Positions 2,055 through 45,074 of a stretch of 64,000 nt of DNA are shown in pieces. The stretch lies in the NCBI RefSeq assembly GCF_003991155.1, contig NZ_CP031293.1; one strand, written 5' to 3'. The notes beneath the pieces were generated by a model. The model was given only the letters and a program-made list of their open reading frames with translations, did no database searches and was not told the DNA's origin. The position numbers and the translations under genes are program-made. Positions within the stretch are counted from its first letter, which is position 1. Each line of letters begins with the position of its first letter. The stretch is from Escherichia coli (lineage in GTDB: Bacteria > Pseudomonadota > Gammaproteobacteria > Enterobacterales > Enterobacteriaceae).

Positions 2055-2981
2055 ATGACTGAACAACAAATTAGCCGAACTCAGGCGTGGCTGGAAAGTT
2101 TACGACCTAAAACCCTCCCCCTCGCCTTTGCTGCAATTATCGTCGGGACGGCGCTGGCATGGTGGCAAGGTCACTTCGATCCACTGGTCGCCCTGCTGGC
2201 ATTGATTACCGCCGGGCTATTACAGATCCTTTCTAACCTCGCCAATGATTACGGCGATGCGGTAAAAGGCAGCGATAAACCTGACCGCATTGGGCCGCTA
2301 CGCGGCATGCAAAAAGGGGTCATTACCCAGCAAGAGATGAAACGGGCGCTCATTATTACCGTTGTGCTCATCTGTCTTTCCGGGCTGGCACTGGTTGCAG
2401 TGGCGTGCCATACGCTGGCCGATTTTGTCGGTTTCCTGATTCTTGGCGGGTTGTCGATCATTGCCGCTATCACCTACACCGTGGGCAATCGTCCTTATGG
2501 TTATATCGGTTTGGGTGATATTTCCGTACTGGTTTTCTTTGGCTGGTTGAGCGTCATGGGGAGCTGGTATTTACAAGCTCATACATTGATTCCGGCACTG
2601 ATCCTTCCGGCAACCGCATGCGGCCTGCTGGCAACGGCAGTACTGAACATTAATAACCTGCGTGATATCAATAGCGACCGCGAAAACGGCAAAAACACGC
2701 TGGTGGTGCGCTTAGGTGAAGTGAACGCGCGTCGTTATCATGCCTGCCTGCTGATGGGCTCTCTGGTGTGTCTGGCGCTGTTTAATCTCTTTTCGCTGCA
2801 TAGCCTGTGGGGCTGGCTGTTCCTGCTGGCGGCACCGCTGCTGGTGAAGCAAGCTCGTTATGTGATGCGCGAAATGGACCCGGTGGCGATGCGACCAATG
2901 CTGGAACGCACTGTCAAAGGAGCGTTACTGACTAACCTGCTGTTTGTTTTAGGGATATTCCTAAGCCAGTGGGCAGCATAA
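2055..2981 (+). CDS. menA: 1,4-dihydroxy-2-naphthoate octaprenyltransferase
   Basis: ORF track 2043..2981 trimmed to conserved start MTEQQISRTQAWLESLRPKTLPLAF (308 aa); polytopic membrane protein. Confidence 0.9.
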   Translation: MTEQQISRTQAWLESLRPKTLPLAFAAIIVGTALAWWQGHFDPLVALLALITAGLLQILSNLANDYGDAVKGSDKPDRIGPLRGMQKGVITQQEMKRALIITVVLICLSGLALVAVACHTLADFVGFLILGGLSIIAAITYTVGNRPYGYIGLGDISVLVFFGWLSVMGSWYLQAHTLIPALILPATACGLLATAVLNINNLRDINSDRENGKNTLVVRLGEVNARRYHACLLMGSLVCLALFNLFSLHSLWGWLFLLAAPLLVKQARYVMREMDPVAMRPMLERTVKGALLTNLLFVLGIFLSQWAA

Positions 2982-3073
2982 CTGACAAATATCAATTAAC
3001 AATTGATGATTTTGCCAACAGCCTACATAGCGCGATATACTGAAAATTCTCGCAGCAACTGAATGTTAAGCCT

Positions 3074-3559
3074 ATGAAATACGATACTTCCGAGCTTTGT
3101 GACATCTATCAAGAAGATGTTAACGTCGTGGAACCGCTGTTCTCCAACTTTGGCGGACGGGCGTCGTTTGGCGGACAAATAATCACGGTAAAATGTTTCG
3201 AGGACAACGGGTTGCTGTACGATCTGCTCGAACAGAATGGCCGTGGTCGTGTTCTTGTCGTCGATGGCGGTGGTTCTGTTCGTCGCGCACTGGTCGATGC
3301 TGAACTGGCGCGTCTGGCAGTACAAAATGAATGGGAAGGTCTGGTCATTTACGGCGCGGTGCGTCAGGTAGATGACCTGGAAGAGCTGGATATCGGCATC
3401 CAGGCGATGGCGGCAATTCCGGTTGGTGCCGCTGGCGAAGGCATTGGCGAAAGCGATGTCCGCGTCAATTTTGGCGGTGTCACCTTCTTCTCCGGCGACC
3501 ATCTTTATGCCGACAATACCGGGATTATTCTTTCAGAAGATCCGCTGGATATTGAATAA
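3074..3559 (+). CDS. rraA: RNase E inhibitor RraA
   Basis: 161-aa [32 protein letters not shown]... Confidence 0.93.
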
Positions 3560-3576
3560 GTACCTGCCATGCGTTA

Positions 3577-3602
3577 AAAGGGGAATTAAATTCCCCTTTT
3601 TT
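3577..3602 (+). terminator. Rho-independent terminator of rraA (ggggaatt-aaattcccc + T-run)
   Basis: Perfect hairpin followed by TTTTTT immediately after the rraA stop. Confidence 0.6.
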
Positions 3603-3606
3603 ATAC

Positions 3607-4293
3607 ATGGACGTATTCATGCAGAATATTATTCTTTTATTTATATATTTATTACTTATAGTCGTTAACCATTTCCGCTACAAATTCCTTTTGTCTGGCA
3701 ACACGGGTGAAATGATTTTATATTTTGCTAACGTATTTTTTAACCCACTTGCCTTATCATTTATTATCGCCGCAATCATCTGTATAACGATAAAAAAAAG
3801 AAGCAGCCACAGCTTTATTCGCGGCACTTGTTGGTTAATGGGATTATTTCTTATCTATAGCAGCTATACAGTGTGGGAACGACACAGCACATGGGATTAT
3901 ACTTTCCCGGGGCCAGGTATCACCGTCACAGTTCCGAGCAAACAGTGGGTTGCCAATATAGTAAAACAAGGACCAATCCTGGTGACTCGGGATGCCCATG
4001 CTATTTTAGTTATTGTTGCCTTCTCACAAAATGAACTCGGTGTGCATTCAATCGAGGAACTTACCGCGACTCAAAACGGAACTGCACAAATGCATGTTTG
4101 TGATGTTAAGGGATTTGCCTGCGCTTATCAGGAAGGAATTCAAACAATGAGTGATGGCAAAATAAGACATGCTATTTTCATGACTCTACTGGATAACACT
4201 AATTTGATACGACTGGTCGCAGCTATCGACCCAGATTATTTGGACGAATATCAAGAAGAAGTAATGAAAATGATACTTTCTGCCCATCAATAA
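3607..4293 (+). CDS. Hypothetical membrane protein (paralog A, ~3 N-terminal TM helices); strain-specific
   Basis: 228-aa ORF, AT-rich, no recognisable SD; shares motifs with the next ORF (LLSG, F-x-RG-x-CW, WxYTF, ITVT-x-P, C-terminal E-x-M-x-LSA). Start codon uncertain (alternative ATG at 3619). Confidence 0.5.
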   Translation: MDVFMQNIILLFIYLLLIVVNHFRYKFLLSGNTGEMILYFANVFFNPLALSFIIAAIICITIKKRSSHSFIRGTCWLMGLFLIYSSYTVWERHSTWDYTFPGPGITVTVPSKQWVANIVKQGPILVTRDAHAILVIVAFSQNELGVHSIEELTATQNGTAQMHVCDVKGFACAYQEGIQTMSDGKIRHAIFMTLLDNTNLIRLVAAIDPDYLDEYQEEVMKMILSAHQ

Positions 4294-4325
4294 TCTGATG
4301 TGCATGTTAATAATAAGGGATTGAT

Positions 4326-5042
4326 ATGAGATACGTTATCTTATTAATACTATGGATAATAACTACTTTTCTTAGTCATCTTCAGCACAGCAACCTACTG
4401 TCTGGAGATCCTGGCATGGTTGGCGAGTATATCGGTTCAGTATTTCTGGGGCCGTTGTTACTTCCCGTGCTTGTGTCAGGTATTCTGTGCGCATTTATTA
4501 AAAAAACACGTAACTTCGCCAGTTTTACTCGCGGGTGCTGTTGGGTATTGGGAATCCTGCTTTTATCCAAAGTCGGCAATACGTTTCGTATGTTTACCCC
4601 GTGGCAATATACCTTTGAGAATGCTGCGATAACCGTGACTATCCCGAACCGACACTGGAATACGGTTTCCATTAGTACTAATGAAACCATTGATATAAGA
4701 AGTGAGGATAATAGCGTCTTCATTTCTGCTTTCCGCCTGCCCGCAGGACGTAGCGCCGATGACCCGCTGGAAGCGTTAAAGAAGAAGCAGCGAGACAATC
4801 TCAAGGATCAATACAATGAGGAAGCCTTCCAGTTTCATGATTGTAATGCCAAACATTTCACCTGTAAGTATCAGGATGTGTTGATAAATTTTGATGGTCA
4901 GCAGAAAAGAACCATCAGTGTTTATCTTGAAGACACCCCCAGGGCTGTGGGGATCATTGCATTAATGGCGCCAGATACGGCAGATAAATATCGCCAACAG
5001 GCGATGGAGATTATGCTTTCCGCTAAAAATGCAGTGAAGTAA
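4326..5042 (+). CDS. Hypothetical membrane protein (paralog B); strain-specific
   Basis: 238-aa ORF with SD AAGGGA 5 nt upstream of the ATG; paralogous to 3607..4293. Confidence 0.6.
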   Translation: MRYVILLILWIITTFLSHLQHSNLLSGDPGMVGEYIGSVFLGPLLLPVLVSGILCAFIKKTRNFASFTRGCCWVLGILLLSKVGNTFRMFTPWQYTFENAAITVTIPNRHWNTVSISTNETIDIRSEDNSVFISAFRLPAGRSADDPLEALKKKQRDNLKDQYNEEAFQFHDCNAKHFTCKYQDVLINFDGQQKRTISVYLEDTPRAVGIIALMAPDTADKYRQQAMEIMLSAKNAVK

Positions 5043-5047
5043 AAAAT

Positions 5048-5066
5048 AAGGCGCCTTGCGGCGCCT
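5048..5066 (-). terminator. Terminator hairpin between convergent ORF B and zapB (ggcgcc-ttgc-ggcgcc); T-run on the minus strand
   Basis: Perfect GC stem flanked by an A-run on the plus strand, which is a T-run for the zapB transcript. Confidence 0.55.
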
Positions 5067-5080
5067 CTACATGGAAGAGA

Positions 5081-5374
<294 letters not shown>

Positions 5375-5559
5375 TTACCGGTGACGCCTTAATAAATACG
5401 AGCGCACTTTAGTTAGCTCCGATTGTATGAAGCCGCGCTATCGCTGTCCAGCGGCACGCCTTGCAGATTACGGTTTGCCACACTTTTCATCCTTCTCCTG
5501 GTGACATAATCCACATCAATCGAAAATGTTAATAAATTTGTTGCGCGAATGATCTAACA

Positions 5560-5700
5560 AACATGCATCATGTACAATCAGATGGAATAAATGGCGCGAT
5601 AACGCTCATTTTATGACGAAGCACACACATTTTAAGTTCGATATTTCTCGTTTTTGCTCGTTAACGATAAGTTTACAGCATGCCTACAAGCATCGTGGAG
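5560..5700 (+). promoter_or_regulatory. glpFKX promoter/operator region (expected GlpR operators and CRP site)
   Basis: Intergenic region upstream of glpF containing repeated TTCG/CGAA half-site-like elements (aagttcgatatttctcg, tgctcgttaacgat); exact sites not resolved. Confidence 0.35.
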
Positions 5701-5750
5701 GTCCGTGACTTTCACGCATACAACAAACATTAACTCTTCAGGATCCGATT

Positions 5751-8127
<2,377 letters not shown>

Positions 8128-8135
8128 TAATGATT

Positions 8136-8171
8136 GCCTGATGCGACGCTTGCGCGTCTTATCAGGCCTAC
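8136..8171. repeat. REP element (gcctgatgcgacgc...cgtcttatcaggcctac)
   Basis: Canonical REP palindrome in the glpK-glpX spacer. Confidence 0.7.
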
Positions 8172-8297
8172 GAGTCGGATACACATCCGGCATCACGCAG
8201 ACTCTGAAACCGTGCGGGGGCAACCCCGCACACATCAATAATCCAGCCCTTCCCCTGTGCTACACTTCGCGCCATTCCTTACTGCTTAGAGTTTGCT

Positions 8298-9308
8298 ATG
8301 AGACGAGAACTTGCCATCGAATTTTCCCGCGTCACCGAATCAGCGGCGCTGGCTGGCTACAAATGGTTAGGACGCGGCGATAAAAACACCGCGGACGGCG
8401 CGGCGGTAAACGCCATGCGTATTATGCTCAACCAGGTCAACATTGACGGCACTATCGTCATTGGTGAAGGTGAAATCGACGAAGCACCGATGCTCTACAT
8501 TGGTGAAAAAGTCGGTACTGGTCGCGGCGACGCGGTAGATATTGCTGTTGATCCGATTGAAGGCACGCGCATGACGGCGATGGGCCAGGCTAACGCGCTG
8601 GCGGTGCTGGCAGTAGGCGATAAAGGCTGTTTCCTCAACGCGCCAGATATGTATATGGAGAAGCTGATCGTCGGACCGGGAGCCAAAGGCACCATTGATC
8701 TGAACCTGCCGCTGGCGGATAACCTGCGCAATGTTGCGGCGGCGCTCGGCAAACCGTTGAGCGAACTGACGGTAACGATTCTGGCTAAACCACGCCACGA
8801 TGCCGTTATCGCTGAAATGCAGCAACTCGGCGTACGCGTATTTGCTATTCCGGATGGCGACGTTGCGGCCTCAATTCTCACCTGTATGCCAGACAGCGAA
8901 GTCGATGTGCTGTACGGCATTGGCGGCGCGCCGGAAGGCGTGGTTTCTGCGGCGGTGATCCGCGCATTAGATGGCGACATGAATGGTCGTCTGCTGGCAC
9001 GTCATGACGTCAAAGGCGACAACGAAGAGAATCGTCGCATTGGCGAGCAGGAGCTGGCGCGCTGCAAAGCGATGGGCATCGAAGCTGGTAAAGTTTTACG
9101 TCTGGGCGATATGGCGCGCAGCGACAACGTCATCTTTTCTGCCACCGGTATTACCAAAGGCGATCTGCTGGAAGGTATTAGCCGCAAAGGCAATATCGCC
9201 ACCACCGAAACGCTGCTGATCCGTGGTAAATCACGCACCATTCGCCGCATTCAGTCCATCCACTATCTGGATCGCAAAGACCCGGAAATGCAGGTGCACA
9301 TTCTCTGA
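8298..9308 (+). CDS. glpX: Fructose-1,6-bisphosphatase class II
   Basis: 336-aa ORF MRRELAIEFSRVTESAALAGYKWLGRGDKN... Confidence 0.93.
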   Translation: MRRELAIEFSRVTESAALAGYKWLGRGDKNTADGAAVNAMRIMLNQVNIDGTIVIGEGEIDEAPMLYIGEKVGTGRGDAVDIAVDPIEGTRMTAMGQANALAVLAVGDKGCFLNAPDMYMEKLIVGPGAKGTIDLNLPLADNLRNVAAALGKPLSELTVTILAKPRHDAVIAEMQQLGVRVFAIPDGDVAASILTCMPDSEVDVLYGIGGAPEGVVSAAVIRALDGDMNGRLLARHDVKGDNEENRRIGEQELARCKAMGIEAGKVLRLGDMARSDNVIFSATGITKGDLLEGISRKGNIATTETLLIRGKSRTIRRIQSIHYLDRKDPEMQVHIL

Positions 9309-35677: not shown

Positions 35678-36737
35678 GTTACTGCAACAGTTGTGCGAAG
35701 CCAGCGCCGTCAGCGGCGATGAACAGGAAGTTCGCGACATTCTGATAAACACGCTGGAACCCTGCGTGAATGAGATCACCTTCGATGGTCTGGGCAGCTT
35801 TGTTACCCGTAAGGGGAATAAAGGGCCGAAAGTTGCCGTTGTCGGGCATATGGATGAAGTCGGCTTTATGGTCACCCACATCGACGAGAGCGGTTTTCTG
35901 CGTTTTACCACCATTGGCGGCTGGTGGAATCAGTCGATGCTCAATCACCGGGTAACCATACGCACACACAAGGGAGTGAAAATCCCTGGTGTAATTGGCT
36001 CCGTCGCCCCACATGCGTTAACCGAAAAGCAAAAGCAACAACCGCTGTCATTTGATGAAATGTTCATTGATATTGGCGCGAACAGTCGCGAAGAGGTGGA
36101 AAAACGCGGCGTGGAAATTGGCGATTTTATTAGCCCGGAAGCCAATTTTGCCTGCTGGGGCGAAGATAAAGTGGTCGGCAAGGCGCTGGATAACCGCATC
36201 GGCTGCGCAATGATGGTCGAGCTACTACAGACAGTAAATAACCCCGAAATTACGCTTTATGGCGTTGGCAGTGTGGAAGAAGAAGTTGGGCTACGCGGGG
36301 CACAAACCTCGGCTGAACACATTAAACCGGATGTGGTGATCGTGCTGGATACCGCTGTCGCGGGCGATGTTCCAGGCATTGATAACATTAAATATCCGCT
36401 GAAACTGGGCCAGGGGCCGGGGCTGATGCTGTTTGACAAGCGCTACTTCCCCAACCAGAAACTGGTAGCTGCGTTAAAAAACTGTGCCGCACATAACGAT
36501 TTACCGCTGCAATGTTCCACCATGAAAACCGGAGCGACGGATGGCGGGCGCTACAACGTGATGGGCGGCGGGCGTCCAGTTGTCGCGCTGTGTCTGCCAA
36601 CGCGTTATCTGCACGCCAATAGCGGTATGATTTCAAAAGCCGATTACGATGCTCTGCTCACGTTGATAAGGGATTTTCTGACCACCTTAACCGCGGAGAA
36701 AGTCAACGCGTTTAGCCAGTTCCGTCAGGTGAGCTAA
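35667..36737 (+). CDS. frvX: M42-family aminopeptidase/endoglucanase-like protein FrvX
   Basis: ORF track 35661..36737; MNIELLQQLCEASAVSGDEQEVRDIL (356 aa from the second ATG). Confidence 0.88.
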   Translation: MNIELLQQLCEASAVSGDEQEVRDILINTLEPCVNEITFDGLGSFVTRKGNKGPKVAVVGHMDEVGFMVTHIDESGFLRFTTIGGWWNQSMLNHRVTIRTHKGVKIPGVIGSVAPHALTEKQKQQPLSFDEMFIDIGANSREEVEKRGVEIGDFISPEANFACWGEDKVVGKALDNRIGCAMMVELLQTVNNPEITLYGVGSVEEEVGLRGAQTSAEHIKPDVVIVLDTAVAGDVPGIDNIKYPLKLGQGPGLMLFDKRYFPNQKLVAALKNCAAHNDLPLQCSTMKTGATDGGRYNVMGGGRPVVALCLPTRYLHANSGMISKADYDALLTLIRDFLTTLTAEKVNAFSQFRQVS

Positions 36738-38485
36738 TGCTAAACGAACGCCAGTTAAAGATTGTCGATCTGCTGGAGCAACAGCCGCGCACGCCTGGCG
36801 AGCTGGCGCAACAGACTGGCGTTTCCGGCAGGACCATCCTGCGTGATATTGACTATCTCAACTTTACCCTCAACGGCAAAGCCCGCATCACTACCAGCGG
36901 CAGCGCGGGCTACCAACTGGAAATTTTTGAGCGTCGCAGCTTTTTTCAGTTGCTGCAAAAGCACGATAACGACGATCGGCTGCTGGCGCTGTTATTACTG
37001 AATACTTTCACTCCCCGTGCGCAACTCGCCTCGACGCTTAATTTGCCAGAAACGTGGGTAGCAGAGCGCCTGCCCCGCCTGAAACAGCGCTATGAACGCG
37101 GTTTTTGTCTCGCTAGTCGCCCTGGTTTGGGCCATTTCATTGATGAGACAGAAGAGAAACGCATTATTTTGCTGGCGAATCTTTTACGCAAAGATCCGTT
37201 TTTAATTCCGCTGTCGGGCGTAACACGAGACAATTTTCAACAATTAACCACCGCCTGCGAAAAGCAACGTCGCTGGCCGCTGATGCAAAGCGACTATCTC
37301 TCAAGCCTGATTCTGGCTATTTACGCGTTGCGTAATCAGCTTACTGACACATGGCCTGAATATCCCGGTGACGAGATAAAACAAATCGTTGAACAAAGCG
37401 GCATGTTTCTTGGTGATAACGCTGTAAGAACCCTGACAGGTTTGATAGAGAAACAGCATCAGCAAGCACAGGTAATTTCTGCCGATAATGTGCAGGGGTT
37501 GCTGCAAAGGGTGCCGGGCATCGCGTCATTGAATATTATTGATACGCAGCTGGTTGAGAATATTACCGGGCATTTATTACGTTGCCTTGCCGCACCAGTA
37601 TGGATTGCTGAGCACCGCCAAAGCAGCATGAATAACCTGAAAGTCGCCTGGCCTGCGGCCTTTGATATGAGTCTGCACTTTATTACGCTACTGCGTGAAC
37701 AGCTCGATATTCCCCTTTTCGACAGCGATCTGATCGGCTTGTATTTTGCCTGTGCGCTGGAGCGGCATCAAAACGAACGCCAGCCGATCATTTTGCTCTC
37801 TGATCAGAACGCGATTGCTACTATTAATCAGCTCGCCATTGAGCGCGATGTCCTGAATTGTCGGGTGATTATTGCCCGCAGCGTAAGCGAACTGGTTGCC
37901 ATTCGCGAAGAGATTGAGCCGTTATTGATCATTAATAACAGCCATTATTTACTGGATGACGCGGTCAATAATTGCATCATCGTAAAAAATATCATTACGG
38001 CTGCCGGTATCGAACAAATAAAACATTTTCTGGCGACGGCATTTATTCGCCAGCAACCGGAGCGTTTTTTCTCTGCCCCCGGAAGTTTTCATTATTCGAA
38101 TGTACGCGGTGAAAGCTGGCAACATATTACCCGGCAAATTTGTGCTCAATTAGTCGCACAACACCATATTACCGTCGATGAAGCGCAACGGATCATCGCC
38201 CGCGAAGGCGAAGGTGAAAACCTGATTGTTAATCGCCTCGCCATCCCACATTGCTGGAGCGAACAGGAGCGACGTTTTCGTGGATTTTTTATTACCCTCG
38301 CCCAATCAGTTGAGGTGAATAACGAAGTCATTAACCATGTTTTGATCGCCTGCGCCGCCGCCGATGCGCGTCATGAGCTAAAAATATTTAGCTATCTTGC
38401 CAGCGTATTGTGTCAGCATCCGGCAGAGGTTATTGCCGGGTTAACAGGATATGAGGCATTTATGGAGTTACTTCACAAGGGGTGA
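36737..38485 (+). CDS. frvR: Transcriptional regulator FrvR (HTH + PRD/EIIA-like domains)
   Basis: 582-aa ORF MLNERQLKIVDLLEQQPRTPGELAQQTGVSGRTILRDIDYLN. Confidence 0.88.
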   Translation: MLNERQLKIVDLLEQQPRTPGELAQQTGVSGRTILRDIDYLNFTLNGKARITTSGSAGYQLEIFERRSFFQLLQKHDNDDRLLALLLLNTFTPRAQLASTLNLPETWVAERLPRLKQRYERGFCLASRPGLGHFIDETEEKRIILLANLLRKDPFLIPLSGVTRDNFQQLTTACEKQRRWPLMQSDYLSSLILAIYALRNQLTDTWPEYPGDEIKQIVEQSGMFLGDNAVRTLTGLIEKQHQQAQVISADNVQGLLQRVPGIASLNIIDTQLVENITGHLLRCLAAPVWIAEHRQSSMNNLKVAWPAAFDMSLHFITLLREQLDIPLFDSDLIGLYFACALERHQNERQPIILLSDQNAIATINQLAIERDVLNCRVIIARSVSELVAIREEIEPLLIINNSHYLLDDAVNNCIIVKNIITAAGIEQIKHFLATAFIRQQPERFFSAPGSFHYSNVRGESWQHITRQICAQLVAQHHITVDEAQRIIAREGEGENLIVNRLAIPHCWSEQERRFRGFFITLAQSVEVNNEVINHVLIACAAADARHELKIFSYLASVLCQHPAEVIAGLTGYEAFMELLHKG

Positions 38486-38534
38486 ACTGTGTCGGATGCG
38501 CCGCATCCGACACTGCATTTATCATCAAAAACGT

Positions 38535-39590
38535 TTAACGCAGGCGATTATAATCATCGACCATTTCGTTGTACTCGCGTAATGCTCTCGGGAAAGAGTC
38601 TTCGACCATCCAGCTTGAGTTTGCGTCCTGAAGTTGCTCTTTATCCCAGTCAGAGTACGGGACTTTATCTCTGATGCGGCGAACGTATTTTTTAGCCTCG
38701 AGTTGATACTGGCCTGCCGAATTAATAAACGAGAAATTCATGCCGCCTTTATCCGCTTCTTTGGCCTGCGCCACCAGCGTTTCCAGTTCAGAGACTTTCT
38801 TCATTGCCGCATCAACATCAAACTTCTCTTGCGAAATCAGGTTATTAATTTGTTTCGCTGAAATCATGACTGCCAGAGAGTAGTAGTGGAATGTTTTCCC
38901 TTCTCTTTCTTCAATATTTTTCAATTCCGCAAGCTGACGCTTATCATTAATTTCCTGGATCGCCGCATGATAAGATTCGGCTACAGGTTCAAAGGCTTCC
39001 AGATTTTTTAAGAATGTCTGGTGCAGCGTTTTCCCTTTCGCAAAAGCATCGTCTTTATAATTTTCCTGGGTGTAATATTTATCCATTTCGTTAATGGTAT
39101 TACCCAACGCCACGGCAGCATCGATATAACTCACCGCTACGCCATCAATAGGTTGCAGCGCAGGCGTTAACGCCACAGCACTTTTTACGCCTTTTTCACA
39201 CTCAGCGAGGCTGGATTCACTAATGCCGTAGATGCCATAAACAGTACTCTCTTTACCGGTAGGCCCCTGTTTAAAATCTTTCAGCCAGTCAGCATAACGC
39301 GCCAGACTGCGCTGTACCGGGATCTGTAACTTGTTGTAGCACTTGATATAGACATCCATTTTTTCGTCGAAAACCGCTTGTTCATCGACCACCGGTTGGG
39401 CAGGCGTTTCAGGTTTAACTTCTGCTTTTGCAACGGGAGCTTCAGCAGGTTTCGCTTCAGGAGCTGGTGCGGCAGGTTGACTATTGGCAGGCGGGGGCGT
39501 TTCTGTTTCGGCTTTTTTATCATCACAACCCGTGAGACCGAGGGCCATGATGGCGACTATAATAGCGGAAGATAATAAATTCCTTTTCAT
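38535..39590 (-). CDS. yiiG: Lipoprotein YiiG (DUF3829)
   Basis: 351-aa ORF with lipobox LTGC and Pro/Ala-rich linker. Confidence 0.85.
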   Translation of the reverse strand: MKRNLLSSAIIVAIMALGLTGCDDKKAETETPPPANSQPAAPAPEAKPAEAPVAKAEVKPETPAQPVVDEQAVFDEKMDVYIKCYNKLQIPVQRSLARYADWLKDFKQGPTGKESTVYGIYGISESSLAECEKGVKSAVALTPALQPIDGVAVSYIDAAVALGNTINEMDKYYTQENYKDDAFAKGKTLHQTFLKNLEAFEPVAESYHAAIQEINDKRQLAELKNIEEREGKTFHYYSLAVMISAKQINNLISQEKFDVDAAMKKVSELETLVAQAKEADKGGMNFSFINSAGQYQLEAKKYVRRIRDKVPYSDWDKEQLQDANSSWMVEDSFPRALREYNEMVDDYNRLR

Positions 39591-39784
39591 TTAATTGCCT
39601 TATAAATATTTAGATAAGAGAGATAATATTTTAAATGAAAAAATGATCCGTCACTATACACATTTTGCTTATAAACAAACCGAAATCATTCACACTCCGA
39701 ATAATTCCTGCGACTTAAAATATAAATCGCAGGAAGCGATTTTAATTACCCGCTCTACCACTGGCGCAGGATATAAACTCTCAC

Positions 39785-42091
39785 CTACATTCCATAACGT
39801 TCAGAAATAGCAGCATGCTTCTCTTCATTCGCCCCGGCTTCTTTGGCAAGACGCCACCAGCACAACGGATGTTCCCAGTCAGCGGTCAATTCGTGCAAGG
39901 TCTTATCGATATCACCTTTAGAAACTGAACGCGGCGCGCTGATAACAAAGTAGAACGCGGGCAGCGGCTGTGCATCTTCTCCCTGCTGGCTGTCCGTTAA
40001 CGTATAGTCCTCGTTACTGTTGCTCCAGTAGTACCAGTTTCGTTCACGGAGCGCCTCACGGAAGGCATTAAACTGTTCTTCACCAGGCATGACACCTTCG
40101 CAGAACCAGGACTCGCCGTACTCAGTCGGGATAATGGTTTGCAGGCAGGCATAAAGTGGCGTGAAATTCTTCCGTTCTTCCTCATCCTCTGGTTGGGTGT
40201 TCAATATTTCCGCATCGAATACCACAACTTCATCAACATGTTGCGGATAATCGGTCCGGTAAGTTGGCTCAATGATCCTTGCTGTTACCGGCCCAATACG
40301 TTGAGCATAGTAATAGCGGTATTCATAATTTTCCCGGAAGCGAATGTTTAGCAGTCCCCATTTTTCGTCGATAAAACCTTCACCTTCCGTAAGTTCGATT
40401 TCCAGTTCAGCTGCAATAGCACGAACCAATTCCCATTGTTGCAGGATGCTGGCGGTCGCCATGATATCCCACTGGATATTACGAATATCTTCTTCACGGC
40501 TAATCATCAGTTGCTGCAATTGTTGTAAATAATCCAGCTGTCGATCCCAGGCTTCCTGTTTTTGTGCTGCCCAGGAGCACATGCGATAAACGCCGATCCA
40601 CTCACGCCCTTTTTCGTTTTGCAGCAACTGGTGCCCAATCGACTCGAGTTCACTCCAGTCTTCCTGTTGGTTGATCACTCGCGCACGGAACCACAAGGCC
40701 ATATGTAGCAGCCCCGCCTGTTCATACTGCTTCGCCAGGTGCTCAATGGTTTGCAGATCGTCACGGTGGAGCAATAAATCCAACAGATCGAAGCAAAGAC
40801 CATTATCTTCCTGGATGTGGCTTTCGACGTAGCGTTGCAGAAGTTCAATCGACTCATCAATCGCATTACAGGCGTTTAACGCATTGACCAGTTTGCCCAG
40901 CAATTCCGCATCATCTGGCGCGTTCAGGTAAGCGCGGCGGAATGTTTCGACGTCTTTTTCTGGATCTGGCTGCGTTTCTTCATCGCTATTTTCAGGTATT
41001 TCTACAACCGGACGAGCAAGCAACTCTGCTTCTTTGGCGGCGATTTTTTCACTCAGTTCGAGAAACTCACGATCAACCCCCAGTAACACGCGTAATTTTG
41101 GCATGTGTCGCTGGGCCAGTTTCATCGCTATTTTGGCAACCCAGACGGATTCACGCTCCAGCGCCAGGGTAATTTGCAGTTTCGCCAGATCAACCACTTT
41201 GCGGTGCGCTCCGGCCTGCGAGCGGTGCTCCAGTATTTTTTGGATGATGCGCGCCAGTTGCCAGTTGTTTCTTTGTGGATGACGGGGAAGTAACACAGTA
41301 ATGATTTTCAGCCATGACCCCCATGAATGGGGAGTCAGATCTGACCAACGCGGTAATTCCTCCCAGACTTCTTCGTCCTGCCCGCATAACGCCATGATGT
41401 ACAGTTTTTTGAGGTGATTACTAATGCGGTCGCGGCCCCAGTAATCATTGGCTTCTGTCAGCTCATCAATCAGTATGCGTGCTTCATCATAACGCTGAAG
41501 TTCAATCAGAATATCGGCACGAGTATAAAGTAATGCATCAATATCATCTTCCCCGGCTGCTTTAACTGCGTCGATTTGTCGATCCAGATAAGCCAGTGCC
41601 TCCTCTATTCTTTTGGAATCTATCAGTGCACTGGCATATTCAGTGGACAAACACTGAAAACAGCTCCAGGTCGGATCAATCCGCGCGATGGTTTCTTCAC
41701 ATACCGCCATACGTTCATTCGCCCAGCCAGGTGCATCAATATTTTCGTAGCAGGCGGATAAATCCTGGGTAACGCAGATAGATTGTGGGCAATCTTTTGT
41801 CTCTTCCCGGTGCGCTTTTTCAAACAGCGCTACCACGTCTGGCAGCACCTTTTCACCTTCTTCATAGTTAGTCAGGCGATGACGCATTTCCCAGTGACCA
41901 ATAAATATTTCCAGCCACGGATTTTTTGCCACCTGGGTAAGTGCTTTTACTTCAGGTAACAGCGAATCGCACTTTTCCATTTGCAGGTGCATAACGCCTT
42001 CCGAATAATCATCGATAAGTTGCGGAATATACTCCTGCCCGGCATCGCGTAACTCCTTAGTATATTTGTGATACCACTCCCATATATCCAT
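39785..42091 (-). CDS. Hypothetical 768-aa largely helical protein, partner of the Hsp90-like ATPase (translationally coupled); strain-specific
   Basis: ATG at 42089-42091 sits 1 nt from the upstream gene's stop (42093-42095); Trp- and Glu-rich, no catalytic motif I can recognise. Confidence 0.6.
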   Translation of the reverse strand: MDIWEWYHKYTKELRDAGQEYIPQLIDDYSEGVMHLQMEKCDSLLPEVKALTQVAKNPWLEIFIGHWEMRHRLTNYEEGEKVLPDVVALFEKAHREETKDCPQSICVTQDLSACYENIDAPGWANERMAVCEETIARIDPTWSCFQCLSTEYASALIDSKRIEEALAYLDRQIDAVKAAGEDDIDALLYTRADILIELQRYDEARILIDELTEANDYWGRDRISNHLKKLYIMALCGQDEEVWEELPRWSDLTPHSWGSWLKIITVLLPRHPQRNNWQLARIIQKILEHRSQAGAHRKVVDLAKLQITLALERESVWVAKIAMKLAQRHMPKLRVLLGVDREFLELSEKIAAKEAELLARPVVEIPENSDEETQPDPEKDVETFRRAYLNAPDDAELLGKLVNALNACNAIDESIELLQRYVESHIQEDNGLCFDLLDLLLHRDDLQTIEHLAKQYEQAGLLHMALWFRARVINQQEDWSELESIGHQLLQNEKGREWIGVYRMCSWAAQKQEAWDRQLDYLQQLQQLMISREEDIRNIQWDIMATASILQQWELVRAIAAELEIELTEGEGFIDEKWGLLNIRFRENYEYRYYYAQRIGPVTARIIEPTYRTDYPQHVDEVVVFDAEILNTQPEDEEERKNFTPLYACLQTIIPTEYGESWFCEGVMPGEEQFNAFREALRERNWYYWSNSNEDYTLTDSQQGEDAQPLPAFYFVISAPRSVSKGDIDKTLHELTADWEHPLCWWRLAKEAGANEEKHAAISERYGM

Positions 42092-42092
42092 T

Positions 42093-43928
42093 TTATTTTC
42101 CTTGATTAATTAAGACAGGAATAACCTGAGTAAAATCTTCCAGTGCCTGGTGTAAATCCCAATGCTGTTCTTTATTACCGCTGGAGCACAAAATCACTTT
42201 CAGCGATTTTAATAAGCGTAATGCCGCTGCGGGCTGTTGCTGGTGTTGTAATGCCGTCACCAGTTGCATGATGCAAGGGTTATTAAGGTTGATGTATAAA
42301 CTTGAGGTTTTCGTTTTTTGGATTTGTGAAGTAAATTGCCGCGCCAGCATTAACGCTGCGGTGCTGATGCGTTTATCTGCGTCATCCTGTTCGAGAATTT
42401 GTTTTAATTCTGCTTCGCGGTCTGGCGTAACCACTAACGGTAAAACGGCGGGTTCGAAGCGGGAGATAATTAATTGCTCGCCATCGCAGAGATGCTCTTC
42501 CAGATAAGCTACCTGCTCTTCGGGTAATTCCGCCAGGCTGAACAACTGCTCATTACCTGTTTGCGTACCGACTTCGACAATCCGGCAGTGATATAACAGC
42601 GCCCAGCGACGTAAAAATGGCACGACGGCATAGCGATCGCCACGGGCAACGGGCCGTTGCAGAATGTGGAACAACATCTCTTCAAAACCGCCGTCGCGGC
42701 TTAACAGAATATGAATGCTGTTATTAACGCGTAAATCCTTCGCCAGCAACGCCCCTTTTGACGTTGGCACCTGCAAGCGATCTTTGAGCAAATCAAACAG
42801 ACGGTCATCACATAATGCCGCACCGAGCAACGCTTCGTTGTGGCGCATTAATACACGCCGCCAGATTTCTGGCTGATTTTGTGCGAGATCGGACAAACCA
42901 GAAATCAGCGCCTCTTTTAACGCCTCCTGCACCGCAACCCAGGTTTCGTCCCGCTGGAGATCTTCCCGGCTCGCCGTAGGCGTTAGTTTCGATGACTCAA
43001 TCACGCCGCCAATAAATCCGGCCCAGGGAGGTAACAACTCACGCGCTTCATCATCCAGTAACATACCGCGCAAAAACAGCGACAGGTTGCGGTTATCGCT
43101 GGTGCCGTAGGTTGCGCCATCCTGAATCCATAAAATCCCAACCGCGTCGCTCATCCCCACGGGCACCACCGGAATGGTGCAAATCGGTTCGAAGGAGGAT
43201 TCAAACTGGGCGGCAAAGGCGAGATTTTTACGCTGTACCAGCGCGCGGTGCATGGTTACGCCTTCGGGGGCAACTTCACGCCACGGTGGTTGAAGTTTAT
43301 TTACCGGCTCGCTGGCATCGCCGACATAGACCGGTTCGTGCAGCAATATACAGTAGCGGGAAAGAACGCGGTTCAGCAAATTGTTACTCGCCAGATGGCT
43401 GTACTCTTCTTTGAGCGTCAGAATCACCTGCGTACCCGTTTCCGAGGACTGATGCGGCGTAACGGTATATTTTTGCCCGTCGGTAGAGTGGTATTTCCAG
43501 CTCTGATCCGGCGTTTGCCAGGATGTGGTCAACACCGTGACCTCTTTCGCCAACACAAAGGCCGACAAAAAACCGAGGCCGAACATACCAATTAAACCGG
43601 TGTTGTCATCCTGCTGGCGCAACATTCGGGTATAACCCACGCCTACTGTCGCCAGGAAGCCGTGAATTTCACTTTCTGTCAGTCCAGCGCCAGTATCGCT
43701 AATAGTGATAGTGGACTTCGCCACGTCTGCCACCACACGAATCGCGTTATCCTTTGGCGCATCGGGCTGCTCAATCCTGCGGCGAACGATCGCATCATGG
43801 CCGTTCTGCACCAGCTCGCGCACGGCAACCACGGGAGTGGAGTAAAGATGCTTACTGAGCACCTCAATTAAGCCGTTTAAATTAACTTCTGTAGAATATG
43901 AACTACCAGGTAACTGTAATGTACTCAT
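42093..43928 (-). CDS. Hsp90/HtpG-like GHKL ATPase (paralog of htpG, not the housekeeping gene); strain-specific
   Basis: 611-aa ORF with Bergerat-fold motifs in Hsp90 spacing: E38-x3-N42-x2-D45-A (ELVQNGHDA), D78-T-G-A-G-L-T, G114-MFGLGFLSAF. Confidence 0.7.
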   Translation of the reverse strand: MSTLQLPGSSYSTEVNLNGLIEVLSKHLYSTPVVAVRELVQNGHDAIVRRRIEQPDAPKDNAIRVVADVAKSTITISDTGAGLTESEIHGFLATVGVGYTRMLRQQDDNTGLIGMFGLGFLSAFVLAKEVTVLTTSWQTPDQSWKYHSTDGQKYTVTPHQSSETGTQVILTLKEEYSHLASNNLLNRVLSRYCILLHEPVYVGDASEPVNKLQPPWREVAPEGVTMHRALVQRKNLAFAAQFESSFEPICTIPVVPVGMSDAVGILWIQDGATYGTSDNRNLSLFLRGMLLDDEARELLPPWAGFIGGVIESSKLTPTASREDLQRDETWVAVQEALKEALISGLSDLAQNQPEIWRRVLMRHNEALLGAALCDDRLFDLLKDRLQVPTSKGALLAKDLRVNNSIHILLSRDGGFEEMLFHILQRPVARGDRYAVVPFLRRWALLYHCRIVEVGTQTGNEQLFSLAELPEEQVAYLEEHLCDGEQLIISRFEPAVLPLVVTPDREAELKQILEQDDADKRISTAALMLARQFTSQIQKTKTSSLYINLNNPCIMQLVTALQHQQQPAAALRLLKSLKVILCSSGNKEQHWDLHQALEDFTQVIPVLINQGK

Positions 43929-44195
43929 TTTTCAATACTCATAATCCATCACCTACTATTGAAAATACATCGCTGTTTTTACAACCGGTGCAAGGTTTGT
44001 TATTTCATTCACTCATCGGAAACATTTATTTATTGACGCGATGATTAAAACAAAATGTCTTATATAAATAATGATTAATTCTTAAAGGATTAATGCGACT
44101 GGAGTATATCGATATAACCCGGAGTTAACGAGATAATTTCTTGTGGTGAAATTATTATTTGAATGCTGAATAATATATTGAGGATTATTTAATAG

Positions 44196-44231
44196 AAAAA
44201 TAAAACCGCAATCCAGAATCAGAATTGCGGT
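44196..44231 (-). terminator. Rho-independent terminator of fdhD (accgcaat...attgcggt hairpin + T-run on the minus strand)
   Basis: Hairpin and U-run immediately downstream of the fdhD stop. Confidence 0.55.
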
Positions 44232-44237
44232 ATTTCT

Positions 44238-45074
44238 TTAATTATGAATCAATCGCTGCGGATGAGTATAAACCGTTGCCCGACCCGGTTTACAAAAACC
44301 TACCAGTGTCAGATTACAGCGTTCAGCCACTTCTACAGCAAGTGTGGTCGCGGCAGATACCGCAAACAAAATCTCTACGCCACACATCGCTGACTTTTGC
44401 ACCATTTCATAACTGGCACGGCTGGAAACCAGCACCGCACCTTGCTGCCAGCTTTCCCCTTCTTGTGACCGGCGGCCTAACAGTTTGTCCAGCGCCACAT
44501 GGCGACCCACGTCTTCATGCCCGCCGACCAGTTCGCCAGATGGCAACATCCATGCAGCGGCGTGAGTACAACCAGTCAGTTGCCCCACTGGCTGGAAATC
44601 ATTGAGATGACGTAATGCATCATCCAGTTTGTTGAGATCAAACGTCTGGGTGAATGGCAGCGGCTGCACCGGTTTACCGATGTCATTAAGTTGCTCCACG
44701 CCGCATACGCCACAGCCCGTACGCCCCGCCAGCGCCCGGCGACGTTCCTTCAACCCCATAAAGCGGCGGCTGGAAAGCTCAATTTGAACTTCAAGACCAT
44801 TACAGGAAGGAACGACATCCATGCCAAAGATATCGCGCGGACTTTCGATTATCCCCTCGGAAAGCGAAAAACCGAGCGCAAAGTACTCAAGGTCTTTGGG
44901 CGACGCCATCATCACCACATGCGAAATGCCGTTGTAGACCAGCGCAACGGGAACCTCTTCCGCCACCTCATCTAACCGTGGGTGTTGTAAATCATCACGC
45001 CGCCATAACTCAATTTGACGAACACCTGTGATATTTGTCACATTTTCGATTTCTTTTTGCTGTGTTTTTTTCAC
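44238..45074 (-). CDS. fdhD: Formate dehydrogenase sulfurtransferase FdhD
   Basis: 278-aa [37 protein letters not shown]... Confidence 0.93.

Follow-up and report, generated by a model that had tools for sequence, protein, structure and literature searches.

A two-gene module of an Hsp90-family ATPase and a tetratricopeptide-repeat protein between yiiG and fdhD of Escherichia coli: a candidate dedicated chaperone system

The 64,000-nucleotide stretch of Escherichia coli DNA analysed here (NCBI RefSeq assembly GCF_003991155.1, contig NZ_CP031293.1; referred to below as the window) carries, in positions 39,591–44,195, two minus-strand genes between yiiG and fdhD, which are separated by a single spacer base according to the list of open reading frames (ORFs). 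An initial annotation, made from the sequence alone, described them as a strain-specific operon of an Hsp90/HtpG-like ATPase and a large helical protein, inserted at a variable junction and having the profile of a conflict system. Our analysis points to a dedicated chaperone module, formed by a paralogue of Hsp90 and a partner protein with tetratricopeptide repeats (TPRs). The two genes are as follows.

42093..43928, minus strand: gene 1, 611 amino acids (aa), Hsp90-family ATPase, a paralogue distinct from HtpG
39785..42091, minus strand: gene 2, 768 aa, partner protein

The initial annotation was accurate at the level of the sequence, as the coordinates, the 1-nt gap, the three ATP-binding motifs and the AT-rich flanks were all verified. 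The stop codon of gene 1 occupies positions 42093–42095 and the ATG of gene 2, positions 42089–42091, with an AAGGA Shine–Dalgarno sequence for gene 2 sitting within the last codons of gene 1; the two genes form a tightly coupled operon. The non-coding flanks have a GC content of 0.29 upstream and 0.33 downstream, vs 0.50 for the window, and the genes themselves are of native composition (0.51 and 0.49). In K-12 strain MG1655, yiiG and fdhD are indeed adjacent, lying 152 bp apart with nothing in between.

The motifs RELVQNGHDA, DTGAGLT, and GMFGLGFLSAF of gene 1 correspond in alignments to those of the TRAP1 and HtpG N-domains, and 22 orthologues preserve them with little or no variation. Pfam identifies HATPase_c_3 (3.2e-9) and HSP90 (PF00183, 1.1e-7, residues 274–353). 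Among the NCBIfam profiles, ‘HSP90 family protein’ (NF010683, the PRK14083 equivalog) matches residues 13–571 with 288.5 bits (E 1e-85; cut-off 455), and the HtpG equivalog NF003555 yields 197.4 bits (cut-off 371). Since the match is near-full-length and the scores lie below both cut-offs, gene 1 is a member of the Hsp90 family outside both curated equivalogs; judged by these profiles, NF010683 is the closest curated family, and gene 1 represents a distinct subfamily. In a phmmer search, residues 10–359 align to the TRAP1 and HtpG structures of PDB at 5e-30, and the C-terminal third shows no similarity to solved Hsp90s; as regards the C-terminal dimerisation domain, the alignment to PDB Hsp90s thus ends at approximately residue 359, and the NF010683 profile continues to residue 571 out of 611.

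The 22 orthologues, which come from several phyla, were aligned together with E. coli HtpG. The catalytic Glu38, the Mg-binding Asn42, Asp45, the adenine-binding Asp78, the G-loop, and the middle-domain Arg322 (of the SRE motif) are conserved across phyla, the segment PTASREDLQ of gene 1 aligning to NVSREILQ of HtpG and NLSRELLQ of TRAP1. Given this conservation, the ATPase of gene 1 should be active. In gene 1, the lid is shorter than in HtpG and contains a GYTR motif specific to the family, and the C-terminal third is divergent but well conserved within the family. No MEEVD-like tail was found on gene 1, as the C-termini of the 22 orthologues vary in length and sequence and share no conserved column. 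E. coli has a separate htpG elsewhere. The earlier assignment of gene 1 as a genuine Hsp90-family ATPase other than the housekeeping htpG is borne out.

Chen et al. 2006 (PMC1525184) assigned the Hsp90s of gamma-proteobacteria to groups A and C alone. As gene 1 is not HtpG, it can be placed, by inference, among the group C Hsp90 paralogues; the one functional-genomics study found, that of Press et al. 2013 (PMC3708813), explicitly excluded groups B and C. Gene 1 is 55–59% identical between Actinomycetota and Xanthomonas, and is found in dozens of Kitasatospora species; the listing of homologues among remote Hsp90 paralogues is dominated by Kitasatospora and close relatives, and the family boundary lies beyond it. 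One source uses the name ‘Hsp90xo’ for gene 1, and the source names retrieved for the proteins of the pair are otherwise ‘HtpG,’ ‘ATP-binding protein,’ ‘TPR repeat protein,’ or ‘hypothetical.’

As a single sequence, gene 2 yields only weak Pfam TPR matches, and the initial annotation had assigned no motif to it. A family profile of 40 diverse homologues matches consensus TPR proteins at 1e-39 and the TPR region of OGT at 2e-13 (positions ~155–281 and 360–546), and the Foldseek search retrieved TPR scaffolds. The AlphaFold 2 (AF2) model is confidently folded (mean predicted local distance difference test score, pLDDT, 91.5), and shows a helical solenoid (residues 1–562) with a flexible linker (361–376), followed by a compact beta-rich domain (~575–768). 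The protein can be divided into three parts.

Residues 1–160: N-terminal domain, helical and conserved, with invariant H66, C101, C106, C144, and C147
Residues ~160–562: TPR solenoid, with the flexible linker at 361–376
Residues ~575–768: C-terminal domain, beta-rich, family-specific, ferredoxin/ACT-like, with a conserved PEDEEER loop

The mean pairwise identity is 54% for the N-terminal 160 residues, 39% for the C-terminal domain, and 31–33% for the TPR regions. The residues H66, C101-P-Q-S-x-C106, D110, Y115, D119, and C144-x-x-C147 of the N-terminal domain are invariant in the 40 diverse sequences; the cysteines form a CX4C…CX2C arrangement, with each pair at a loop-to-helix N-terminus in the AF2 model. 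This placement would suit a Cys4 metal site, provided that the packing of the helices resembles a TPR array. The C-terminal domain, with the conserved motifs TGPVTARI, VVFDA, PEDEEER, and DGVxPGEE, is seen solely in this architecture, and neither an enzyme-like fold nor a Pfam family was detected in it. Its acidic loop PEDEEE[RK] (residues 634–640, window positions ~40172–40192) is nearly invariant; by analogy, it recalls the acidic peptides bound by TPR grooves, and might serve for binding within the protein itself or to a partner. The gene 2 family, clustered at 50% identity, has 641 cluster representatives with E<=1e-30, and the top 150 are essentially all 750–790 aa long.

A scan of species-representative genomes found relatives of gene 2 in 201 species, spanning Gamma-, Beta-, and Alphaproteobacteria, Holophaga, a metagenome-assembled genome of Chloroflexi, and Streptomyces; the AFDB matches add further Actinomycetota and Myxococcota. 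We retrieved 80 loci, of which 75, in at least five phyla, had enough upstream sequence to judge the pairing. A homologue of gene 1 (50–98% identity) lies directly upstream on the same strand in 74 out of 75 loci, at a spacing from a 4-nt overlap to ~115 nt. The sole exception is Thorsellia anophelis (retrieved locus, positions 2339–7061), where an ORF similar to nicotinamide phosphoribosyltransferase (NAMPT) is found upstream, with an 850-bp gap before gene 2. The pair is present across many species or strains of Xanthomonas, Stenotrophomonas, Kitasatospora, and Pseudomonas aeruginosa. Clustering of flanking ORFs over 28 genera revealed no third conserved component, the other recurrent clusters being shadow ORFs inside both genes or generic ABC ATPases. 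In seven annotated contexts, the neighbours are ordinary metabolic, transport, or regulatory genes, which vary between genera. As to the earlier question of whether the pair travels together in defence islands, the two genes do travel together, and the seven annotated neighbourhoods contain no defence or mobility genes.

In Cronobacter dublinensis, two hok/gef toxin genes are located ~0.5 kb upstream of the pair (positions 4894–5596 of the retrieved locus); these are the only conflict-type genes in any sampled neighbourhood.

The pair of P. aeruginosa allows for a comparison with published data. Over its full length, gene 2 shares 42% identity with a P. aeruginosa protein encoded after an Hsp90-like gene, and PA1068/PA1069 appears to be the orthologous pair, with the locus tags assigned from the context and the literature. 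This locus lies between a LysR regulator and a branched-chain amino-acid ABC transporter with flg genes, and the pair seemingly belongs to the core genome of P. aeruginosa (a cluster of 2,871 members, present also in the outlier strain PA7), in contrast to its accessory status in E. coli. PA1069 is reported to share an operon with a gene of the Hsp90 family and to respond to Ca2+ or growth as a biofilm by induction (PMC4053335). Its level is ~4-fold lower at 46 C (PMC4957987), and thus it is not a classical heat-shock gene. In 2026, it was still listed as an ‘Uncharacterized protein,’ enriched in the list of proteins co-immunoprecipitated with BatR alongside IscS and IscR (PMC13411936); given the invariant cysteine cluster, a link to iron–sulfur (Fe–S) handling is conceivable, although the observation is anecdotal. 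Another ‘PA1069’ match in the literature is the name of an isolate, not of the gene. The literature search, in which much of the subscription literature was not covered, revealed no account of the pairing, of the partner family, or of any phenotype.

Within E. coli, the 4.6-kb unit is present in 254 out of 5,426 complete genomes (4.7%), always in the chromosome and in a single copy; every match spans at least 96% of the 4.6-kb query, and all 254 carriers have both genes together. The junction is contiguous, as in K-12, in at least 3,821 genomes. The unit is therefore accessory and variable in E. coli, as initially annotated, being neither conserved in essentially all genomes of the species nor present in K-12. 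The DNA that is extra with respect to K-12 covers approximately 39749..44236, and the BLAST homology blocks overlap by 8 bp, which mark its borders.

39741..39748, no strand assigned: left 8-bp direct repeat TTTAATTA, at the BLAST border vs K-12
44237..44244, no strand assigned: right 8-bp direct repeat TTTAATTA, at the border, overlapping the fdhD stop codon

Exactly two copies of this repeat are found in positions 39601–44400, one per border, and K-12 has one copy. Taken alone, it fits both a target-site duplication and a deletion at microhomology, and it is the only border feature: no long direct or inverted flanking repeats, integrase, transposase, or tRNA-type scar were found at the locus. 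The choice between these scenarios is guided by outgroups. Three E. coli carriers inspected, with alleles differing by up to 8–11% in DNA, all have the pair between yiiG and fdhD, and the order fdhD–gene 1–gene 2–yiiG is also observed in E. whittamii, two further Escherichia species, and the separate genus Superficieibacter. A contig of Salmonella Infantis SARB27, filed in a phage collection, carries both genes (protein identities of 91 and 76%) within the fdhD…rha region, at positions 4163–8310 of the retrieved locus; its record gives LT2 locus tags for the flanking genes and none for the pair, which suggests a similar presence/absence polymorphism in Salmonella. Proteins 98–100% identical to gene 1 have been reported from E. 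fergusonii, E. marmotae, E. ruysiae, and the cryptic Escherichia clades. The synonymous divergence (dS) between E. coli alleles, 0.20–0.25 for gene 1 and 0.19–0.46 for gene 2, is in the same range as that of the flanking core genes fdhD (0.16–0.18) and frvR (0.21–0.58). Given the shared synteny in Escherichia species, Superficieibacter, and Salmonella, the most economical scenario is that the pair is a long-term resident of this locus, its presence is ancestral, and the absence of the K-12 type results from a deletion between the copies of TTTAATTA in the lineage from which most E. coli descend; insertion of a mobile element is disfavoured. Hence, of the description ‘strain-specific’ and ‘inserted,’ the former holds for E. 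coli, and the latter disagrees with the outgroup synteny, the native GC content, and the divergence that tracks the flanks; the idea of a conflict system at a variable junction is likewise unsupported, the pair being ancestral at this locus.

Both genes are under strong purifying selection within Escherichia. The ratio of nonsynonymous to synonymous divergence (dN/dS) between E. coli alleles is 0.02–0.04 for gene 1 and 0.09–0.12 for gene 2, and in gene 2 it does not exceed 0.14 in any region except the 16-residue linker; by this measure, no hypervariable region was found in either gene. The pair is rarely associated with mobile replicons. A tblastn search with gene 2 yielded matches in three out of 72,556 plasmid records, each of them large or seemingly part of a chromosome (an 847-kb replicon, an 11.8-Mb replicon, and a 29-kb Xanthomonas record), and none in genuine phages, the single ‘phage’ match being a 156-kb Salmonella chromosomal contig. 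Phage matches to gene 1 are distant HtpG-like genes (22–31% identity).

The remaining features of the locus concern its expression.

43929..44204, minus strand: AT-rich 5′ regulatory region of the operon (GC 0.294, about 29%)
43925..43942, minus strand: upstream ORF (uORF) MSIEK*, ATGAGTATTGAAAAATGA, five codons, with the TGA overlapping the gene 1 ATG as ATGA
44205..44231, minus strand: fdhD terminator from the terminator scan, a hairpin with a T-run (10-bp stem, 5 GC pairs, T tail)
39705..39742, minus strand: hairpin(s) 3′ of gene 2, inverted repeat I6, a terminator-like site homologous to the K-12 intergenic hairpin

The predicted fdhD terminator, which is kept in all Escherichia alleles compared, marks the upstream limit of the unit and insulates transcription of the pair from fdhD, and the hairpin(s) 3′ of gene 2, whose homologue in K-12 is the fdhD terminator, likely terminate the operon. 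The 309-bp upstream region (approximately 43929–44237) is 98.1% identical across alleles, compared to 89–94% for the coding DNA, and thus is more constrained than synonymous sites; this conservation suggests dense regulatory binding, e.g., by nucleoid proteins. The sigma-70 scan yielded no convincing minus-strand promoter upstream of gene 1, and a sigma-32 match seen by eye was too weak to count. The uORF is preceded by an AGGTGA Shine–Dalgarno sequence (43949–43954) and is identical in five Escherichia alleles, and the ATG of gene 1 itself has no Shine–Dalgarno sequence. In Superficieibacter, the ATG homologous to the uORF start is in frame with gene 1, producing an N-terminal extension. The uORF may couple translation of gene 1 by termination–reinitiation, or else reflect a start remodelled by a frameshift in Escherichia.

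Two observations concern the left flank. The frvR–yiiG segment (window positions 36737–39590) shows an unusually deep allelic divergence within E. coli, where frvR has a dS of 0.20–0.58 between strains, yiiG alleles differ in length (1,044 vs 1,056 bp), and identity to K-12 upstream of yiiG is only 87%; such a pattern is indicative of old balanced haplotypes, or of introgression, affecting the entire frv–fdhD region and not the pair alone. In E. coli 6EVA (positions 3683–6000 of the retrieved locus), an IS3-family element splits yiiG right beside the pair, which is intact.

In order to evaluate the conflict-system proposal, both proteins were compared to collections of defence and phage proteins. 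PADLOC-DB v2.0.0 yields no match to gene 2 at E<=1; for gene 1, the matches to TmtA (5.7e-6) and REase_II (0.004) are limited to the N-domain (residues ~11–195) and represent domain-level noise, and the BbrUII profile of NCBIfam scores 37 bits against the cut-off of 550. In the PHROGs scan, gene 1 matches only an unannotated family and gene 2 matches nothing. No nuclease, protease, TIR, SIR2, pore-forming, or other effector domain was found in either protein, and a domain-centric study of E. coli defence discovery published in 2026 mentions neither Hsp90, nor GHKL, nor TPR. The scans thus yield nothing meaningful that would relate the pair to a known defence system, in agreement with the initial impression that it is not a named one; they give no support to the proposal of a conflict system itself, with which the non-defence neighbours, the strong purifying selection, and the rarity on plasmids and phages also disagree.

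The interpretation which we favour, and hold with moderate confidence, is that of a dedicated chaperone module composed of an Hsp90 paralogue and its obligate TPR partner, self-contained and mainly vertically inherited. The profile of an ancient, self-contained two-gene module under strong constraint is closer to that of a cellular machine than to that of an immune system. Gene 1 would be a catalytically competent Hsp90 paralogue and gene 2, its obligate partner, produced in matched amounts from the same mRNA. The helical Cys4/His domain at the N-terminus of gene 2 would dock on the Hsp90 paralogue, this surface being proposed because the domain is the best-conserved region of gene 2 and gene 1 is highly conserved as well; the TPR solenoid would provide a surface for binding of peptides or proteins, and the C-terminal ferredoxin/ACT-like domain may bind a ligand or a specific client. 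Gene 2 would then serve as an adaptor or co-chaperone, or else as a regulatory subunit under permanent chaperoning, and would steer the ATPase cycle towards certain substrates under certain conditions, possibly redox, metal, or Ca2+/biofilm stress, with the cysteines hypothetically serving in metal or redox sensing. A bolder and less likely version would make the pair the first prokaryotic Hsp90 co-chaperone system, where the paralogue works only with its TPR adaptor, the Cys4 site forms a metal or redox switch, and the TPR groove recruits clients or DnaK as a Hop-like bridge. The C-terminus of DnaK carries an EEV-containing tail. The main rival, which we regard as unlikely, reverses the roles: gene 2 would be the sole dedicated client and the functional end-product, which the Hsp90 paralogue only folds, assembles, or switches, and its C-terminal domain and cysteine cluster would do a regulatory or enzymatic job, e.g., ligand sensing or metal/Fe–S handling. 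This comes close to the initial idea of a single large client, with the conflict removed. The strict one-to-one pairing and translational coupling, the family-specific and well conserved C-terminal domain, the invariant CX4C…CX2C cysteines, and the anecdotal appearance of PA1069 with IscS and IscR in the BatR list (PMC13411936) are all consistent with it; however, no enzyme-like fold or Pfam family is detected in the C-terminal domain, a TPR solenoid of ~400 residues is more typical of a scaffold or adaptor, and the confidently folded AF2 model gives no sign of unusual instability, which is weak evidence.

Two further explanations are much less probable than the exchange of roles between chaperone and client. 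In an anti-phage or conflict system, which we consider improbable, recognition of an invader protein would fall to the TPR protein, and the GHKL ATPase would relay the response or carry it out. Architectures with an ATPase and a TPR sensor do occur in immune systems, Avs/STAND proteins being an example with a different class of ATPase, and the patchiness of the pair within E. coli (4.7% of genomes) and apparently Salmonella, the weak GHKL-only matches to TmtA, REase_II, and BbrUII, and the hok/gef genes adjoining the Cronobacter copy would agree with such a role. On the other hand, the absence of a PADLOC match to gene 2 and of effector domains, the housekeeping neighbours in seven contexts, the lack of an integrase, a transposase, or a mobile-type repeat scar, the near-absence from plasmid records and absence from genuine phages, the ancestral, syntenic location with native GC content, the very strong purifying selection with no hypervariable sensor region, and the wide occurrence across species of several genera all argue against it. 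The least probable explanation is that the pair is a decaying remnant without a current function in E. coli, kept by chance in a minority of lineages, as might be thought from its loss in ~95% of genomes and from the fact that no phenotype is known; but both ORFs are intact and full-length in 254 out of 254 carriers, dN/dS of 0.02–0.12 at dS of 0.2–0.46 implies sustained purifying selection, and the promoter region differs even less between alleles than the coding DNA does.

Accounts of bacterial Hsp90 usually have it work without co-chaperones and with few known clients, and its deep paralogues have been catalogued rather than studied; Wickner, Nguyen and Genest reportedly wrote in 2021 that bacteria have neither Hop nor Hsp90 co-chaperones. 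The pair described here is a concrete, testable candidate for a prokaryotic machine of an Hsp90 and its partner, present in pathogens including P. aeruginosa, Stenotrophomonas, and Xanthomonas, and if the co-chaperone reading is true, TPR-assisted function of Hsp90 would predate eukaryotes. The E. coli lineages with and without the module, isogenic-like in this respect, constitute a natural genetic resource, and a plausible-looking but unsupported candidate can be struck from the list of possible new defence systems.

The likeness of the pair to known systems is in each case partial. Gene 1 shares with HtpG, TRAP1, and groups B and C the GHKL N-domain with all ATP-binding motifs, the catalytic-loop arginine of the middle domain, and the length of ~610 aa; in contrast to HtpG, for which no dedicated partner gene is known, it is nearly always encoded with one. 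GHKL proteins of defence and restriction systems (MORC-like/paraMORC, BbrUII/HgiDII-type, TmtA) have the Bergerat ATP-binding fold in common with gene 1, but the likeness is confined to the ATPase domain, as the middle domain of gene 1 is of the Hsp90 type, no nuclease or other effector was found in the pair, and its genomic context is non-defensive. Hsp33 has a redox-regulated zinc centre, CXC…CXXC; gene 2 likewise has four invariant cysteines in two close pairs and is associated with a chaperone, an analogy that comes with no similarity of sequence or fold. CHORD proteins provide a precedent for Zn- or Cys-rich domains that bind Hsp90.

The closest parallel is with the eukaryotic systems in which Hsp90 is linked to TPR co-chaperones (Hop/Sti1, PP5, CHIP, Tah1, Sgt1), although here the link between the Hsp90-family ATPase and the TPR protein is genomic. 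Gene 2 has TPR repeats, as such co-chaperones do, and gene 1 lacks the acidic MEEVD tail by which Hsp90 engages the TPR carboxylate clamp; differently from Hop, PP5, and CHIP, gene 2 consists of one 768-aa chain whose N- and C-terminal domains are unique, and its homology to them is limited to the generic TPR repeats. The usual statement is that Hop and Hsp90 co-chaperones are missing from bacteria, as in one preprint (bioRxiv 10.1101/562637). Against this background, the genomic data presented here point to an Hsp90 chaperone system with an apparently undescribed, probably obligate partner, which would resemble the eukaryotic Hsp90–TPR systems in concept.

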